Notes: generated by a model not told the origin, from the letters alone. Numbered from the stretch's first letter, positions 10,904 through 20,299 are shown. The stretch: 63,607 nucleotides of DNA from Candidatus Bathyarchaeia archaeon (GCA_049969855.1 JBMFOB010000006.1:1-63607); one strand, 5' to 3'. Program-made: numbers and translations.

Positions 10904-11456
10904 AATACCAAAAGAACGAGTAGGCGCCCTAATAGGTCCAGAAGGAAAAACCAAGAAAAGCATAGAAGAGAAGCTTTCAGTTGAACTTCAAATAGAAAGC
11001 GAAACAGGCGCCGTTACAATTATGCTGGCTGAAAACGCCAATGATCCATCCTTGCTCTTTAAGGCTAAGGATGTTGTAACAGCCATTGGAAGGGGTTTCT
11101 CTCCAGAACATGCCTTTCGCTTAATTCGTGATGAAGAAGTCATATTAGATGTTATAGATTTGCGAACAATTTTTGGAAGGTCAGAATCAGACATAAAACG
11201 CATTAAAGGGCGAATAATTGGGATGAATGGAAAAACCCGCAAAATAATAGAAGAGCTAACAGACGCAAACATATGCGTTTACGGACACACAGTAAGCATA
11301 ATTGGAAACATAGACCAAGCCCAAGCAGCAAGAGAAGCCATCCAAATGCTCATAAACGGAAGCCAACACAGCACAGTATACCGTTTCCTCCACAGAAAAC
11401 GCAGAGAACTTAAAAAGAAAATGCTTGAGCTATGGGAAAAATCACCAGATTCTTAG
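10878..11456 (+). CDS. KH-domain rRNA processing protein (Dim2/Pno1 family)
   Basis: IPKERVGALIGPEG, AIGRGFSPE, GRIIGMNGKTR, VYGHTV; follows rio1. Confidence 0.9.
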   Translation: MAKPSTFLKIPKERVGALIGPEGKTKKSIEEKLSVELQIESETGAVTIMLAENANDPSLLFKAKDVVTAIGRGFSPEHAFRLIRDEEVILDVIDLRTIFGRSESDIKRIKGRIIGMNGKTRKIIEELTDANICVYGHTVSIIGNIDQAQAAREAIQMLINGSQHSTVYRFLHRKRRELKKKMLELWEKSPDS

Positions 11457-11566
11457 AGAAAACACTAGTTTCTGAAATAGGCAAAGCCCCATACTTTTTC
11501 TCATTTTTGAGTCAAATTTATATAGAAAATAGTTCTAGAACAAAAGTTCACCCATCTGGGGGGGCG

Positions 11567-11737
11567 ATGGCAACAAGAAACCTTTTCTTGCTGAAAGCGG
11601 TCCTCACCATACAACTTTCAAAACTAGGCTTGGACGTTGCAATCTGCCATAAATGTGGCAAAATATTCATGAAAACTGACGGAACAACAATCTGCAAAGA
11701 ATGTCAACACCAATTACTCTCATCTTTTTCTGCTTGA
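11567..11737 (+). CDS. Small zinc-ribbon protein
   Basis: GGGGGG before ATG at 11567; CHKCG...ICKEC. Confidence 0.5.
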   Translation: MATRNLFLLKAVLTIQLSKLGLDVAICHKCGKIFMKTDGTTICKECQHQLLSSFSA

Positions 11738-11791
11738 AACCTCAATGCACTACAAACAAACGGGCTAGAGGGGAGCTAAAGCTCAACAGTT

Positions 11792-11862
11792 TGGCGAGCT
11801 CTTCGCACTCAAGATCCCAATCATTTTTGTTCAGCGGGGCCAGAGTCGTCATCGCTCTGCCA
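11792..11862 (-). ncRNA. Putative box C/D-like sRNA gene used as the integration target
   Basis: Minus strand reads TGGC(A)GAGC stem, G-ATGACGA (C-like), CTCTGGCCCCG, CTGA (D'), ATGATT (C'), GGGATCTTGAGT guide, ...AAGA, GCTCGCCA stem. The terminal D box is degenerate. Confidence 0.45.
11839..11856 (+). repeat. attL core GCCAGAGTCGTCATCGCT
   Basis: Identical to 15792-15809. Confidence 0.9.
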
Positions 11863-12760
11863 TGGTAATGATGATGATTTGCAATTTATTAATGTTGCGA
11901 CGACTCCGCCCCCGCTGAACCATTCTGTAGATTGGAGTGCGTTTAAGGAATGGTTATGCAAAGATAAGAGTGGAGATTATGCAAGAGATTTATTGAATTA
12001 TGCTAAACGCTTTCACCATTGCCTTTTCAATGGCAACTTAAGTGAAGTTGCATTGTTAAGTGAAGGCAAACGTAGAATGGTTTTAGCGAGTCTTTCAGCT
12101 TTAGCGAAGTTTTTAGGCATTTATGACCAATGGAAAAACTCCATTCAAAGATATGGGATTAAATGGGTTGAAGTTGAAACAAAAGATAAGCGAATCATTC
12201 AAAGACTAACCAAGGCAATAGATGTAAACGATGTTTACCAATGGATTAAAAGCGTTAAAGAAGCAAGACCAGAATTAAGCATCTTCATAGGTTTCATGGC
12301 GATTACGGGTTTGCGTCTTGTGGAAGCTGTCGAATCTTACAACCTCATTATTAAATTGGCAAAGGAAGGAAGGTTAAGCGAGTATTACGATAGCGAAAAA
12401 GAAGTTTTGGAACACTACAAATTTAGAGAAACATTCCTACGGAAAGGAAAGAAAGCGTTAATCAGTTTTGTTCCTAAAAGCATGGTTCAAAGGATAGCTG
12501 AAGACTCTTCGCTTAAGACAGCTTCATACATAGATAAGAGCATGAGGCATTATGGTTTACGTTCACGTTTTAGCGATTTAAGAGAGTTTCATGGAAGCAT
12601 CATGACTAAACACCTTAACCAGAACGAAATAGACTTTCTGCATGGTAGGATTGGAACATCAACTTTCATGGCGAACTATTATAATCCATTGTGGATTGGC
12701 GATTTAAAACAAAGAGTCTGGAAAGGGATAAGTGAAATCCTTGCAGAGATACGATGCTAA
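11840..12760 (+). CDS. Tyrosine recombinase, C-terminal fragment (intC) of an SSV-type integrase
   Basis: TGLRLVEA, SDLREF, FLHGR, NYY catalytic-type motifs. The frame is open upstream of the TTG at 11879 through attL (PESSSLCHGNDDDLQF). Confidence 0.85.
   Translation, partial: PESSSLCHGNDDDLQFINVATTPPPLNHSVDWSAFKEWLCKDKSGDYARDLLNYAKRFHHCLFNGNLSEVALLSEGKRRMVLASLSALAKFLGIYDQWKNSIQRYGIKWVEVETKDKRIIQRLTKAIDVNDVYQWIKSVKEARPELSIFIGFMAITGLRLVEAVESYNLIIKLAKEGRLSEYYDSEKEVLEHYKFRETFLRKGKKALISFVPKSMVQRIAEDSSLKTASYIDKSMRHYGLRSRFSDLREFHGSIMTKHLNQNEIDFLHGRIGTSTFMANYYNPLWIGDLKQRVWKGISEILAEIRC
11862..11923 (+). ncRNA. Putative element-encoded box C/D sRNA or K-turn inside the integrase ORF
   Basis: ATGGT-A-ATGATGA (box C, 11868-11874)...CTGA (box D, 11915-11918)-ACCAT; perfect 5-bp terminal stem with a 3-nt bulge. 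Confidence 0.5.
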
Positions 12761-12980
12761 ACCGTTTAATCTTCTCTCCCTTTTCATAAACAAATCCGTA
12801 ATCATTCAAAATGGCGATATAGAAGTTGCAGGAATCCTTTTAGCGTTTGAGAAAAGCAGCAGGGTCCCATTCCATAAACCTTTCACTTTAGTGCTGTTGA
12901 CGAGAGATGGAAAAGCAATTATGCGAGATTGGGACATAGTCAAATTTAGACCAGTTAAGGTGGTGAGGGGTTATGCGTAA
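12732..12980 (+). CDS. Small element protein, possibly Sm/LSm-like fold
   Basis: LSLFINKSVIIQNGDIEVAGILLAFE resembles the Sm1 motif; overlaps its neighbours. Confidence 0.45.
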   Translation: MKSLQRYDAKPFNLLSLFINKSVIIQNGDIEVAGILLAFEKSSRVPFHKPFTLVLLTRDGKAIMRDWDIVKFRPVKVVRGYA

Positions 12981-13197
12981 ACATGATAATCCAGTTCCCA
13001 AATGGATAACTCTGGTCGCTACGCTGCTTTTAGGTTGCATTCTGGTTCCAATAATTGTTGACCAGGTGCAAAGCGTTAACACGACAAGCTGGAGTTTCAC
13101 GGGTGTAAGTGGAGCAAGAACGCTTTTCGGTCTTATCCCATTCATTTTCATAGTCGGCATAATCATTTACTTTATGGTTGAACTGTTGAGGGTTTAG
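12973..13197 (+). CDS. Spindle-shaped virus major capsid protein (SSV1 VP1/VP3-like)
   Basis: 74 aa; two hydrophobic helices LLLGCILVPIIVDQV and ARTLFGLIPFIFIVGIII separated by a loop with an NTT sequon and TG. Pattern recalls fusellovirus VP1 (IGxxLLPVIVxQV...TG..ATLL.LVPL). Confidence 0.7.
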   Translation: MRKHDNPVPKWITLVATLLLGCILVPIIVDQVQSVNTTSWSFTGVSGARTLFGLIPFIFIVGIIIYFMVELLRV

Positions 13198-13202
13198 ACG
13201 GA

Positions 13203-13601
13203 ATGGCAAATATTAATCAGTTTTTTCTTGACGGTTTTCTAAAACTTTTTCTGGCAATGTTCACGTTTAACCTGGGAATGCTCTTAATGGTATTGGCAAT
13301 TAGTAATTCACTGTTTTATTATGCTTCAGCTTCATTGTGGATAATCAGCATCCTTTTCATTCTGAAACAAGTGCAACATCTACGATGGATAAAAGATAAT
13401 TTGGAATTCAAAGAAGATGATGAACCGCAAATAAGAATAGATGCAAGCGATGAAGATTATGTTAAGGTTCTCAAGTTATATCTTAACGGTTCCTATAAAA
13501 CCATAATGAAAACGTATCAGTTTAAACATCCTGGTCAAGCTCAACGGTTAATAAAGAAAAGCATAAGGCAACTTTTGATAGAAAAGGGTAGGGGTAACTG
13601 A
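13203..13601 (+). CDS. Element membrane protein (2 TM segments plus C-terminal soluble domain)
   Basis: Hydrophobic N-terminal half and charged C-terminal half; starts 5 nt after the capsid gene. Confidence 0.6.
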   Translation: MANINQFFLDGFLKLFLAMFTFNLGMLLMVLAISNSLFYYASASLWIISILFILKQVQHLRWIKDNLEFKEDDEPQIRIDASDEDYVKVLKLYLNGSYKTIMKTYQFKHPGQAQRLIKKSIRQLLIEKGRGN

Positions 13602-13612
13602 TTAAAAAATGC

Positions 13613-13765
13613 TTATTGCTTCTCTTTTTCTCTTTTGCTTAACCATTCTGGAATTATCACAGCTCGAATTAATTCTTGAACGGTTATGCCTCTCTCCTTC
13701 GCTAATTGCTGAAGTTTCTTGTAAACTTCTTCTTCGAGTGTTTGCATGAATTTAGGCATACTCAT
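13613..13765 (-). CDS. Ribbon-helix-helix DNA-binding protein (50 aa, not in the ORF track)
   Basis: MSMPKFMQTLEEEVYKKLQQLAKERGITVQELIRAVIIPEWLSKREKEKQ; GGTGA-like RBS upstream. Confidence 0.75.
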   Translation of the reverse strand: MSMPKFMQTLEEEVYKKLQQLAKERGITVQELIRAVIIPEWLSKREKEKQ

Positions 13766-13844
13766 ATGTTTCTCACCATCCTATATTTATTTCATTCTGT
13801 AGATAGCTATAGAAAGATTTAAAAAGATTTCCATTTATACCTAA

Positions 13845-14273
13845 ATGCTGCACGTATCTTCTACGTGCGAGAGTGAGAAAGTGGAAAGAAAGCTGATTGT
13901 AACTGGTTTGGCGGCACTTTTAGCGCTTGCCCTAATCGTCTATGCCTTTGAACAACAAGCTGTCACTGTTTATCGCCCCACGGTTGTAGCGGTGAACTTT
14001 CAAAACTTGCCAGTGTCACTTTACGCTGTTAATTTCAATTACAGCGATGCGCAAATGCGTTACACGACCGTAACTTTAACGTTGAACAACACTGCAGCGC
14101 CGATGAACGCTTCAATAAGTGTAATGCTTTACGCTAATGAAAGTGAAGCGTGTAGTGGATTTTGGAGTGGCGTTTTAAACGGTTTCCAGCAGCTGCAGGT
14201 AACGCTAAACTGGATTGGCAATTACACGGTGAACGACATAACCAGCGGATACGTAACATTGAAGCAACCTTAA
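13845..14273 (+). CDS. Secreted or membrane-anchored beta-rich glycoprotein, putative virion or adsorption protein
   Basis: N-terminal hydrophobic helix; many NxS/T sequons (NYS, NNT, NAS, NES, NYT). The true start may be GTG 13881. Confidence 0.6.
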   Translation: MLHVSSTCESEKVERKLIVTGLAALLALALIVYAFEQQAVTVYRPTVVAVNFQNLPVSLYAVNFNYSDAQMRYTTVTLTLNNTAAPMNASISVMLYANESEACSGFWSGVLNGFQQLQVTLNWIGNYTVNDITSGYVTLKQP

Positions 14274-14296
14274 ATTTGAAGAACTAAGCTTTCAAC

Positions 14297-14313
14297 CTTC
14301 CCCCCTTTTTTCT
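14297..14313 (+). terminator. Pyrimidine/oligo-T archaeal terminator
   Basis: CTTCCCCCCTTTTTTCT just after the stop at 14273. Confidence 0.4.
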
Positions 14314-14543
14314 GAAAAGGCAATCTATGGGAAGTTAGACGCTCCAGATTTTTTATCTGGCACTTTTTCCATGCTTTTCAGTTGAAGCGTAACATCTTTA
14401 TGGAAAATGTAATCCTCACTCTATTCGTGTGATAAGTGATATGTTGTGTTGACACGCACAAGCGTCAACCTAAACGGATGATGTCCTTTCCAATAATTTT
14501 TAGTTGATAGCGGCAAAATCAAAGCGGAAGCAATACCCACGCG

Positions 14544-14957
14544 CTAATCATGCCACTTGCCACATGGATAAAACATGAACAGATAATCCAATAAACTGTA
14601 TTTGATAACTTGATGGTTTTCCACGTCAATTATCTCGATTGCCTCTTTAACCCTCGGATTATTAAGAAGTTTAAACCATCCAGCTTTAACAATGAAATCC
14701 AATTCCCAAACATATTTTGGATGGCAATAAAATGGACGTAAAGGATGTTTAAAGACTCGAATACGCTTCAGACTTTTATACATTAACCTGCGAAACGTAT
14801 CTTTAGCATAAATATGTTTAAAAATTGGATAAAGGGCATCCATAATTTGTTTTGGAGTTGCATAATGAAAAGCTTCAAAGAACAATCTTAAATAATCTTC
14901 AAGGCGTAGGCGAGTAGTAGCATCCTCATTTTTGGTTTCATGGAAATTCATGGTCAC
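14544..14957 (-). CDS. Hypothetical element protein (possible wHTH or replication-related)
   Basis: 137-aa ORF inside the element; no recognisable catalytic motif. Confidence 0.5.
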   Translation of the reverse strand: MTMNFHETKNEDATTRLRLEDYLRLFFEAFHYATPKQIMDALYPIFKHIYAKDTFRRLMYKSLKRIRVFKHPLRPFYCHPKYVWELDFIVKAGWFKLLNNPRVKEAIEIIDVENHQVIKYSLLDYLFMFYPCGKWHD

Positions 14958-15015
14958 ATCTATGACTTTTAAAACTGAATGACAATTTAAGACTTGTTGA
15001 CAAAGGTGTGTTAAA

Positions 15016-15177
15016 ATGCAAAAAGTAAGAATAAGCGTAAGAATTGATGGAGAAGATTTCGAGAAGATTCAAGCTGCAATAAAGAAGGCATATCCAACTT
15101 TAAGAAGCGTTTCTGATGTTGTCCGTGCAGCTTTGAAGGAATTTCTTTCTAAACATGAAGGGGTGTGTGTGTATTAA
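15016..15177 (+). CDS. CopG/RHH DNA-binding protein (53 aa, not in the ORF track)
   Basis: MQKVRISVRIDGEDFEKIQAAIKKAYPTLRSVSDVVRAALKEFL; GGTG RBS. Confidence 0.75.
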   Translation: MQKVRISVRIDGEDFEKIQAAIKKAYPTLRSVSDVVRAALKEFLSKHEGVCVY

Positions 15178-15352
15178 AATGAGTGTGTCTGTCTTGTCTT
15201 CCTTCTTCTCTTCTCTCTTCTCTACTCATAATACTCATATACTCATACATACACACATACACACTCACACCTTTTCATTAAAGGAAAATGGGGTAAGCAG
15301 CGGCGGCGAAAACTCTGCAGCTTCTCCGATAATACACACACATACACACACC
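15164..15352. repeat. CA/TG-rich repeat region, candidate replication origin
   Basis: 13-bp inverted repeat (15164-15176 and 15330-15342), TACTCATA x3 (15223, 15232, 15240), ATACACAC repeats. Confidence 0.55.
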
Positions 15353-15359
15353 TTTTTAG

Positions 15360-15608
15360 GTGATGTTCATGGTTAAACGTGACGGAGCAGAAATAAGAAA
15401 AGAAAGAATCCAAGAAATTGTTAGAAAAGTTGTTAGTTTGCTGCATAACGAAGAGGAAATACTGGTAGATTCCACCGTTGCCATTCTTCAATACGAAACA
15501 GGATTAAGACCAGACAAAATAATGGAATACCTCGAAATTGGAGACCAACTTAAACGGTTTGAACTTGACAAAGATAAAAACAAAATTAAGAAAATCAAAG
15601 AGGCATAA
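15360..15608 (+). CDS. Small winged-helix-like element protein
   Basis: RKERIQEI...YETGLRPDKIMEYLE helical pattern. Confidence 0.6.
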   Translation: MMFMVKRDGAEIRKERIQEIVRKVVSLLHNEEEILVDSTVAILQYETGLRPDKIMEYLEIGDQLKRFELDKDKNKIKKIKEA

Positions 15609-15626
15609 ACGTTAAATAGCTATTTA

Positions 15627-15642
15627 TATGCATATATGCATA
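15627..15642. promoter_or_regulatory. Perfect 16-bp palindrome TATGCATATATGCATA upstream of intN; candidate operator
   Basis: Lies between AT-rich TATA-like sequence and the GGTGA RBS of intN. Confidence 0.5.
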
Positions 15643-15651
15643 GGTGAAAAC

Positions 15652-15819
15652 GTGAAAGCGAGAACAACACTCCTAATAGATGCCGACGTTTTGAAAACCG
15701 CCAAAGAATTAGGTTTCAACATTTCAATGGTTTGTGAAAACTGCTTAAAAATCTATATAGAGGCAATAAAAAACGCTAATAAGAAAATAGTGCCAGAGTC
15801 GTCATCGCTTCGCCGTTAA
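15652..15819 (+). CDS. Integrase N-terminal fragment (intN) with CcdA/VapB-like RHH domain
   Basis: RTTLLIDADVLKTAKELGFNISMVCENCL; ends ...VPESSSLRR across attR, in the same att reading frame as intC. Confidence 0.75.
   Translation: MKARTTLLIDADVLKTAKELGFNISMVCENCLKIYIEAIKNANKKIVPESSSLRR
15792..15809 (+). repeat. attR core GCCAGAGTCGTCATCGCT
   Basis: Identical to 11839-11856. Confidence 0.9.
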
Positions 15820-15857
15820 ATTTTAGCACCGTCTAAAATAAAAGTTTATAGTTGTTA

Positions 15858-20136: not shown

Positions 20137-20225
20137 GGCAATTCCTATTTTATATAAACAAAATCTAATCTATTAGCTTTGCCACAAACAAGCATCTAAT
20201 ACGGCGGCTAAAACCTTGTATAAGG

Positions 20226-20299
20226 GGCCGGGGCCGGGATTTGAACCCGGGCGCTAGGCTCCACAGGCCTATAGGCTACCAGGCTACCTCACCCCGGCC
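20226..20299 (-). tRNA. tRNA-His(GUG) with genomically encoded G-1
   Basis: GCCGGGG/CCCCGGC acceptor stem, TAGGC-CT-GTG-GA-GCCTA anticodon arm, GGTTCAAATCC T loop. Confidence 0.95.

Follow-up and report, generated by a model that had tools for sequence, protein, structure and literature searches.

A box C/D small RNA gene as the probable integration target of an SSV-type element in Bathyarchaeia

What does an archaeal element integrate into when neither of its ends carries a tRNA? The question is raised by a stretch of 63,607 nucleotides (nt) from Candidatus Bathyarchaeia archaeon (GCA_049969855.1 JBMFOB010000006.1:1-63607), here called the window, whose positions serve as coordinates throughout; its source genome, G000, is a metagenome-assembled genome (MAG) of 49 contigs and 1.28 Mb with 3.8% contamination. 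Within the window lies an integrated element of 3.95 kb that carries, in two parts, an SSV-type integrase, the type I or 'suicidal' class of which SSV1, pTN3 and the TKV elements are examples. We consider it likely that this element recombined, by means of its own integrase, with the 5' part of a single-copy, class-wide gene for a box C/D small RNA (sRNA) that guides methylation. Both the integration and the nature of the RNA have good support, and a functional restoration of the interrupted gene by the element is, judged from the sequence, plausible.

The limits of the element are marked by a direct repeat of 23 nt (11839-11861 and 15792-15814; 2 mismatches, 18 nt exact), the 17-nt core of which has two exact copies in the 1.28-Mb genome, compared with 0 for a reversed-pattern control. 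The only tRNA that ARAGORN and Rfam find in the window is tRNA-His at 20224-20298, and both show that neither attachment (att) site carries one, as a preliminary description of this DNA had claimed; the sequence details listed in that description are all present where it had placed them. The features that define the element and its integrase are as follows.

11839-11861: attL, one 23-nt copy of the repeat, its exact 18-nt core lying at 11839-11856
11857-15791: element body; the core-to-core distance is 3953 bp, and the outer limits are 11839-15814
15792-15814: attR, the other 23-nt copy of the repeat, its exact core lying at 15792-15809; read on the minus strand, it contains box C and the native 5' arm GGCGAAGC, the 23-nt 5' stub to which the sRNA gene is truncated here
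11840-12760, plus strand: Int(C), the C-terminal catalytic part of an SSV-type tyrosine integrase, with a frame open from the att core
15628-15819, plus strand: Int(N), the N-terminal, ribbon-helix-helix part of the integrase (CcdA-like, PF07362), a 63-codon open reading frame (ORF) that enters attR

The two integrase parts fit together through the att core. Segments 15628-15809 and 11857-12760 share one phase through the core, and the joined product has 361 aa and no internal stop; its residues 13-359 align to residues 2-353 of an unsplit 354-aa homolog, P0024, with 52% identity, and P0033 and P0038 align likewise. The first start codon listed for Int(C) is a TTG at 11879. Int(N) matches the CcdA ribbon-helix-helix family (E 2.7e-7), and Int(C) matches the PHROG integrase family phrog_5127 (E 1.1e-10). 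Unsplit homologs carry PF07362 together with PF16795 (Archaeal phage integrase), both above cut-off: for PF16795, with a cut-off of 27 bits, P0024 scores 34.5 and P0033 38.1 bits (both about 50% identical to the window protein), the 78% identical homolog P0003 scores 25.3 bits, under the cut-off, and the window's own Int(C) gives no match at E <= 1. Among 15 aligned sequences R159, K204/205, R248, R270 and Y280 are invariant and H251 is nearly so, and catalytic roles can be predicted for the five invariant positions. No counterpart of the integrase was found among solved structures by sequence or profile search. Together, the alignments support an SSV-type integrase with attP inside the int reading frame, which is split by integration.

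The unoccupied form of the site is found in relatives. In all three same-genus relatives examined (L002, L003 and L005) the left flank (to 11856) and the right flank (from 15792) adjoin, overlapping by 17-18 nt, and the element body, 11857-15791, has no match. Among public sequencing runs the stretch occurs only in X1, the hot-springs source metagenome, represented by Logan contigs, where an 81-nt contig with a depth of 15 spans 11788-11856 and continues with 12 letters that equal window positions 15810-15821 (letters compared by eye); this contig is an unoccupied junction. Contig depth in X1 is 11.7-15.9 for the flanks vs 6.5-7.6 for the element. The X1 contigs carry a 32-nt insertion near 11774 relative to the window, and the X1 population resembles G002 in this respect; because of that insertion, the empty-site contig may derive from a co-occurring strain instead of being an excision product. 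A protein search of viral contigs for a free or circular form returned no relatives, a 23-nt stretch across the element end and the core had 0 exact matches, and no unsplit integrase of >56% identity was present among the best 120 homologs.

The same gene is occupied in five related elements, L055 in genome G294 and L057-L060 in metagenomes. The integrases of L057-L060 are 81-84% identical to that of the window, and that of L055 is 71% identical over residues 1-115; L057-L060 have a second copy of the core 3247-3941 bp away, and L055 has a matching attL junction. These elements bear on the alternative that the 3.95-kb segment is an assembly chimera or a chance repeat in a MAG and no site-specific insertion. 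Such an origin is suggested by the 49 contigs and 3.8% contamination of the assembly, by the fragmentation of the X1 Logan contigs over the region with their unequal depths in flanks and element, and by L059, which looks chimeric: its flanks are mutually inconsistent, the native arm GGCGAAGC at its attR misfitting the 3' arm GCCTGCC at its attL, and this counts against the reading favored here. However, four other contigs from different metagenome records share the junction structure with both att copies, a matching attL junction occurs in a second genome, the integrase halves are in frame through the core, and the empty site of the relatives is base-exact, so that a chimeric or chance origin is hardly credible. 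As for L059 itself, its left flank is like those of L057 and L060 and its right flank is like that of L058; the assembly may have fused near-identical elements into a chimera, or lysogens may have recombined with one another.

What, then, is the gene at the site? Read on the minus strand, the copy at attL and the native promoter region beyond attR comprise the following parts.

11793-11861, minus strand: box C/D sRNA gene as rebuilt at attL, about 69 nt, with nt 1-6 from the element, nt 7-23 the att core and the remainder from the host
11861-11854, minus strand: 5' arm GGCAGAGC, 8 nt, followed by G
11852-11846, minus strand: box C, ATGACGA
11845-11835, minus strand: D' guide, an 11-nt spacer
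11834-11831, minus strand: D' box CTGA, followed by 6 nt
11824-11818, minus strand: C' box, ATGATTG
11817-11806, minus strand: D guide, a 12-nt spacer
11805-11800, minus strand: D-like box, CGAA(GA)
11799-11793, minus strand: 3' arm, GCTCGCC
15835-15843, minus strand: native TATA-like box TTTTATTTT, read as TTTTATTT at 15843-15836, with its centre about 25 nt before the native 5' end (15814)

The segment is conserved in relatives. In a BLAST search of 11400-11861 against 40 relatives, the last ~65 nt were found at 81-98% identity in 27 of the 40, spread over several families of the order. A covariance model, R1, built from 18 orthologs, matches the window at 11791-11861 on the minus strand with 87.5 bits and finds the RNA in 109 of 151 Bathyarchaeia genomes sampled class-wide (75 of the 95 of high quality), with one copy in each except G143, which has two; in the other 42 of the 151 the RNA was not found. 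The native 5' stem that had been placed beyond attR, with a box about 25 nt upstream, is present: the minus strand there reads TTTTATTT, then 21 nt, then GGCGAAGC from 15814. Aligned orthologs have an upstream consensus, CTTTTTATTT, preceded by CTATA and located about 25 nt before a GGYGGGC arm, and this arrangement fixes the transcribed strand as the minus strand. The best A/T octamer is centred at -22 to -32 in 32 of 47 orthologs, with a mode of -28; these 47, which also underlie the box statistics below, comprise 27 from the window's order and 20 picked from more distant families. A split or intron-containing tRNA was considered as the target and rejected, since neither ARAGORN nor Rfam detects a tRNA there, whether in the window or in orthologs that are intact.

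The conserved RNA has the layout of a box C/D guide. The consensus box C is RUGAUGA; the window and 37 of 46 orthologs have AUGACGA, with one change at position 5, and the canonical R-UGAUGA is found in 3 of 46. The D' box reads xxGA in all 46 orthologs and CUGA in 24 of them, internal C' and D' boxes are present, and the spacer between C and D' measures 11 nt and that between C' and CGAA 12 nt. The terminal D box, which the preliminary description had singled out as weak, is the least regular part: among 47 orthologs the four letters that come after the D guide read CUGA in 5 and xxGA in 16, and in the window CGAA and then GA precede the 3' arm, so that the essential GA is kept and the register is ambiguous. 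In orthologs of the window's order GA always abuts the 3' arm wherever an arm exists. The weakness thus holds for the window's order, but distant orthologs carry a canonical CUGA; we read the degenerate D box as a peculiarity of the window's lineage and not as a property of the family, because these more distant orthologs have CUGA at the expected register.

The terminal stem shows covariation. In the 47-sequence alignment 80.2% of cells are paired, compared with 66.5 +/- 1.4 in shuffles (0 of 500 reach the observed value) and 40-53% when the partners are slid by 1-3 columns; all 7 of the 7 pairs have changed on both sides, in 46 cells, and the 27-sequence set gives similar results. A model-free test of the arms was run because the stem alignment had been fitted to the covariance model, and in this test native partners had a mean of -11.0 kcal/mol vs -9.48 +/- 0.36 for swapped partners (0 of 2000 permutations; n=25). 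An obvious terminal stem was absent in three lineages, L101, L119 and L111. Rfam matches on the correct strand are all to C/D families, 8 of 8 for ortholog L020, sR-tMet included, and L020, which has a canonical D box, aligns to full-length snoPyro_CD with the four boxes in register (E 8.7e-4). The source genome encodes fibrillarin (322.7 bits) and Nop5 (263.4 bits) in adjacent genes on contig C5.

The D guide points to a specific target. Its uninterrupted Watson-Crick match to the anticodon loop of the source genome's tRNA-Leu(CAA) is 11 pairs long for the mature form and 10 for the intron-bearing precursor (gene at G000 C19:10374-10481, with a 22-nt intron); in a comparison with 38 tRNAs the next best value is 9, with G-U pairs counted. 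Counted upstream from box D in its conserved register, guide nucleotide five (N+5) faces the wobble nucleotide C34, and the chance of an 11-nt match that places position 34 at N+5 is estimated to be of the order of 1e-3 over ~3000 tRNA positions. Of 47 orthologs, 43 share the D-guide core GAUCUUGAGU, and the anticodon arm of tRNA-Leu(CAA) is unchanged in 16 relatives, namely 20 pattern matches minus 4 without the GGA stem that were set aside unchecked. tRNA-Leu(UAA) would pair with the D guide with a G-U at position 34. As targets of the D guide in ribosomal RNA (rRNA), searched in the large-subunit (LSU) and small-subunit (SSU) rRNAs of G012 and the LSUs of 10 further relatives (G000 being without assembled rRNA), we rejected all candidates, the best having 10 bp rich in G-U. 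According to a review (PMC7994747), Pyrococcus has C/D sRNAs for which the target is the first anticodon nucleotide of tRNA-Leu(CAA) and tRNA-Leu(UAA), and sRNAs targeting tRNAs use one guide, the other being without a target.

Two side observations concern the tRNA. Nine of the 16 relatives (L069, L071, L072, L075-L079 and L081) have a tRNA-Leu(CAA) intron in a non-canonical location, following nucleotide 39 or 40. The invariant part of the D guide pairs exactly with tRNA-Leu(CAA) positions 31-40, which are present before and after splicing.

The D' guide appears to be an orphan, consistent with the one-guide pattern given in PMC7994747. Its spacer is invariant within the order and, unlike the D guide, has diverged in distant lineages. 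The best candidate for it has 12 bp, 2 of them G-U, at one LSU site in only 5 of 11 LSUs. Among rejected candidates, two weak LSU sites, in 5 of 11 and 7 of 11 LSUs, were not accepted; 38 tRNA genes, mature and precursor, gave <=10 bp with 4 G-U, within an intron; and a genome-wide search for exact complements gave extra 11-mers in G000, G002 and G012 only, estimated to be at chance level. The LSU segment GGGGCCAGGGUU, at ~1420-1446 in G012, G034, G006, G008 and G023, could form 12 bp (2 G-U) with the D' guide; the site is missing in G032, G030, G014 and G029, although the sRNA is present there. In the source genome, a membrane-protein gene has 13 nt complementary to the D' guide immediately before its start codon (G000 C7:7232-7244), and the same-genus genome G002 has an 11-mer complement at C20:16354; the match is not conserved in other genera and is at an estimated chance level.

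Is the RNA then a methylation guide, or is it another K-turn small RNA or a regulatory element whose match to tRNA-Leu(CAA) is coincidental? Several of the results weigh against a guide. The snoPyro_CD score is 12.7 bits for the window and 25.7 bits for the best ortholog, L020, with the gathering threshold of 45 not reached; in the window's order 1-3 extra GA-rich nucleotides lie between the conserved D register and the 3' arm; counting from the stem-adjacent GA in G000 would make the target C32 instead of C34; the stem counts come from an alignment fitted to the covariance model; and the D' guide, strongly conserved in the order, has no convincing target in the rRNA of 11 relatives, in tRNAs or genome-wide. 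The sub-threshold Rfam scores, the AUGACGA variant of box C, the degenerate D box of the order and the stem missing in L101, L119 and L111 would fit a non-guide RNA as well. However, sub-gathering scores are to be expected for a new C/D family, because guides differ among C/D families, and the right-strand matches are all to such families. The spacers of 11 and 12 nt, the xxGA boxes at all four places, the canonical CUGA and UGAUGA in distant orthologs, the 11-nt Watson-Crick match that puts position 34 at N+5, the genes for fibrillarin and Nop5, and the same target as described for Pyrococcus sRNAs in PMC7994747 make a non-guide RNA improbable. Conservation, box layout and stem covariation agree with the earlier proposal of a box C/D sRNA rather than a tRNA as the target, and the assignment of the conserved RNA as a box C/D 2'-O-methylation guide is well supported by its sequence features.

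How would such a gene survive the insertion? The att core corresponds to nt 7-23 of the RNA, a span that takes in the final 2 nt of the 5' arm, all of box C and the first part of the D' guide. The core thus lies in the 5' part of the RNA gene, and the element therefore supplies the first six nucleotides and the A/T box upstream of them. Two further features of the element lie in this region.

11885-11892, minus strand: the element's A/T box TTAATAAA, inside the int frame, a proposed replacement TATA box
11899-11920, plus strand: an inverted near-copy, complementary at 20/22 to sRNA positions 11829-11850 (tail of box C, D' guide and D' box)

The arm supplied by the element pairs with the resident arm. 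As had been proposed, the element brings a different 5' arm: GGCAGAGC with the resident GCTCGCC gives -11.7 kcal/mol, the same as the native arrangement, a value that 0.13% of random 9-mers equal. Across the six elements, the arms give -10.8 to -13.1 kcal/mol with the resident 3' arm in five of six, with 0.1-0.9% of random 9-mers as good, and five of the six arms form 7 bp with one bulge. The element's own box at plus-strand 11885-11892 likewise proved to be in place, its reverse complement reading TTAATAAA; the six elements all carry it unchanged, and in five of them its centre lies at -28.5 from the rebuilt 5' end. This position is supportive but weak evidence for a promoter. The inverted near-copy, located inside int and 48 nt from the core, extends past the att core and has been kept in 6 of 6 elements; the integrase might bind there, or the copy might form a regulatory hairpin. 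Separately, beyond the attR core the minus strand at 15762-15791 has T-runs, TTTT and TTTTTT, within 30 nt of the stub, identical in five elements; they could end transcription from the orphaned native promoter.

According to the mechanism that we propose, the SSV-type integrase of the element would recombine the 17-18-nt core with the 5' part of the sRNA gene. After integration, the native promoter and native arm stay at attR, leading into the 23-nt stub and then into element DNA, and at attL the remainder of the gene is joined to the element's arm, with the A/T box ~28 nt upstream. The attL copy would then be transcribed from the element's box and be functional, and its RNA would assemble with L7Ae, Nop5 and fibrillarin and methylate C34 of tRNA-Leu(CAA).

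The behavior of the rest of the integrase family provides context for this proposal. Homologs of the integrase occur in 71 of 401 genomes of the class. All 29 readable junctions of other family members are at tRNA genes (25 of 30 genome loci and 4 metagenome loci, with L036, L050, L051, L026, L061, L064 and L067 excluded as cut or fragmentary), and the sRNA gene adjoins Int(C) only in the window's closest relatives. The DNA beside Int(C) is the 3' half of a tRNA in 23 of the 29 junctions and an antisense 5' half in 6 (L035, L042, L043, L053, L063 and L066; five recognized by motif and L053 by eye). If their geometry is like that of the window, the elements with an antisense 5' half would likewise restore that half of their target and have to bring a promoter.

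The integration could also be real and yet inactivate the guide gene, the attL copy being silent or non-functional and the likeness of the arms being att homology from past capture of host sequence. This alternative draws on observations that tell against restoration: the L060 arm pairs over only 4 bp, at -5.4 kcal/mol, with 20% of random 9-mers as good; a cross-matrix of arms shows no host-specific matching; an all-A/T octamer within an 11-nt window has an estimated chance of ~0.1, taking a rough A+T of ~60%, so that the box may be a chance occurrence or a by-product of int codons; the box sits in coding sequence that is not uniquely conserved, and the six elements are related; no RNA run is among the public runs with the stretch; and the RNA, not found in 42 of 151 class genomes, is perhaps dispensable. 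Against inactivation, an arm of 7 bp with a single bulge is retained in five of six elements, the A/T box does not vary and stands at the native distance, the boxes and the D guide are intact in all six attL copies, related integrases at tRNA genes show the usual gene-restoring layout, and G000 has no second copy of the RNA. On this balance we regard inactivation as rather unlikely and restoration as plausible. The preliminary description had spoken of a compensatory restoration of stem and promoter: the replacement arm does pair, but 'compensatory' is too strong a word for arms that are variants of the native arm, show no adaptation to particular hosts and in L060 form 4 bp.

How does this site compare with known integration sites? 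The tmRNA gene (ssrA) is an integration site of bacterial phages and islands, and at tRNA and tmRNA sites the integrating element replaces the 3' end. The element described here resembles SSV-type systems in that int is split at attP, in that homologs carry PF16795, and in that the target is a small stable RNA with part of its gene copied on the element. It differs from them in that the target, in the window and five related elements, is a box C/D sRNA gene and not a tRNA gene, in that the core lies at the 5' end, with the element supplying the 5' arm and a putative promoter instead of the 3' end, and in that the N-terminal part here is a CcdA-like ribbon-helix-helix. For SSV-type integrases of archaeal viruses and plasmids, PMC7253208 and PMC8371274 describe an attP inside int and a split on integration; the latter, a review of archaeal tyrosine recombinases, gives attB as tRNA genes and some intergenic regions or protein genes and does not mention small guide RNAs. 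A bacterial site in the ffs (4.5S RNA) gene is described in PMC12540744. The site described here is like the bacterial tmRNA and ffs sites in that a conserved small RNA gene is the attB, and unlike them in that the integrase families are different.

The RNA, in turn, is like known archaeal C/D guides in its length of ~60-70 nt, its C, D', C' and D boxes, its anticodon-loop guide with position 34 at N+5 and its orphan second guide, and unlike them in its scores of <=25.7 bits vs a gathering threshold of 45, its mostly AUGACGA box C and, in the window's order, its degenerate and shifted D box. The RNA family is, as far as searched, specific to Bathyarchaeia.

The preliminary description had suggested a new class of integration target, and this agrees with the literature that we searched, in which we found no published case of a C/D box sRNA gene as an integration site; an earlier mention is possible, supplementary tables and subscription papers lying outside the search. 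What is new is the gene class of the target and the end that is replaced, the 5' end with its putative promoter and not the 3' end. These elements repeatedly and site-specifically take a C/D box sRNA gene as their attB, which extends the logic of a conserved stable-RNA gene as a landing pad to a new gene class and is the mirror image of the solution at tRNA sites. The analysis also defines a class-wide guide RNA of Bathyarchaeia in an uncultured lineage, with a concrete predicted target, C34 of tRNA-Leu(CAA). The invariant 17-nt core is a possible marker for such elements and a possible attB for archaeal genetic tools.

A further reading goes beyond restoration. Integration might shift a host tRNA-modification guide onto a promoter inside int, such that wobble methylation of tRNA-Leu(CAA), the reader of UUG, would follow the transcriptional state of the element; the 22-nt inverted copy might serve such control or integrase binding; and a subset of the integrases might have evolved to seize the 5' ends and promoters of small RNAs, the six antisense-tRNA relatives being further cases. 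Taken jointly, these three propositions are speculative, and we think it unlikely that all of them hold.

The intergenic region next to the sRNA gene differs among relatives. The segment 11432-11790, between a KH-domain gene and the sRNA gene, contains a 101-aa ORF with a weak zinc-finger match. G001 and G003 lack the segment, their KH and sRNA genes being ~14 nt apart; the segment may be a remnant of another insertion.

The cargo varies between related elements and the integrase is kept, with 93-98% identity for Int(N) and 82-85% for Int(C) among 4 elements. No replication gene was recognized in the elements. The recognizable cargo of the window's element is as follows.

12973-13197, plus strand: 74-aa ORF with two hydrophobic-looking stretches (by eye), matching phrog_11172, a virion structural protein (E 4.3e-5)
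13613-13765, minus strand: 50-aa ribbon-helix-helix (CopG/Arc-like) regulator
15016-15177, plus strand: 53-aa ribbon-helix-helix (Arc-like) regulator

Homologs of the 74-aa ORF are present in 3 of 4 related elements. The ORF is reminiscent of small capsid proteins of spindle-shaped archaeal viruses, in elements of only 3.2-3.9 kb.

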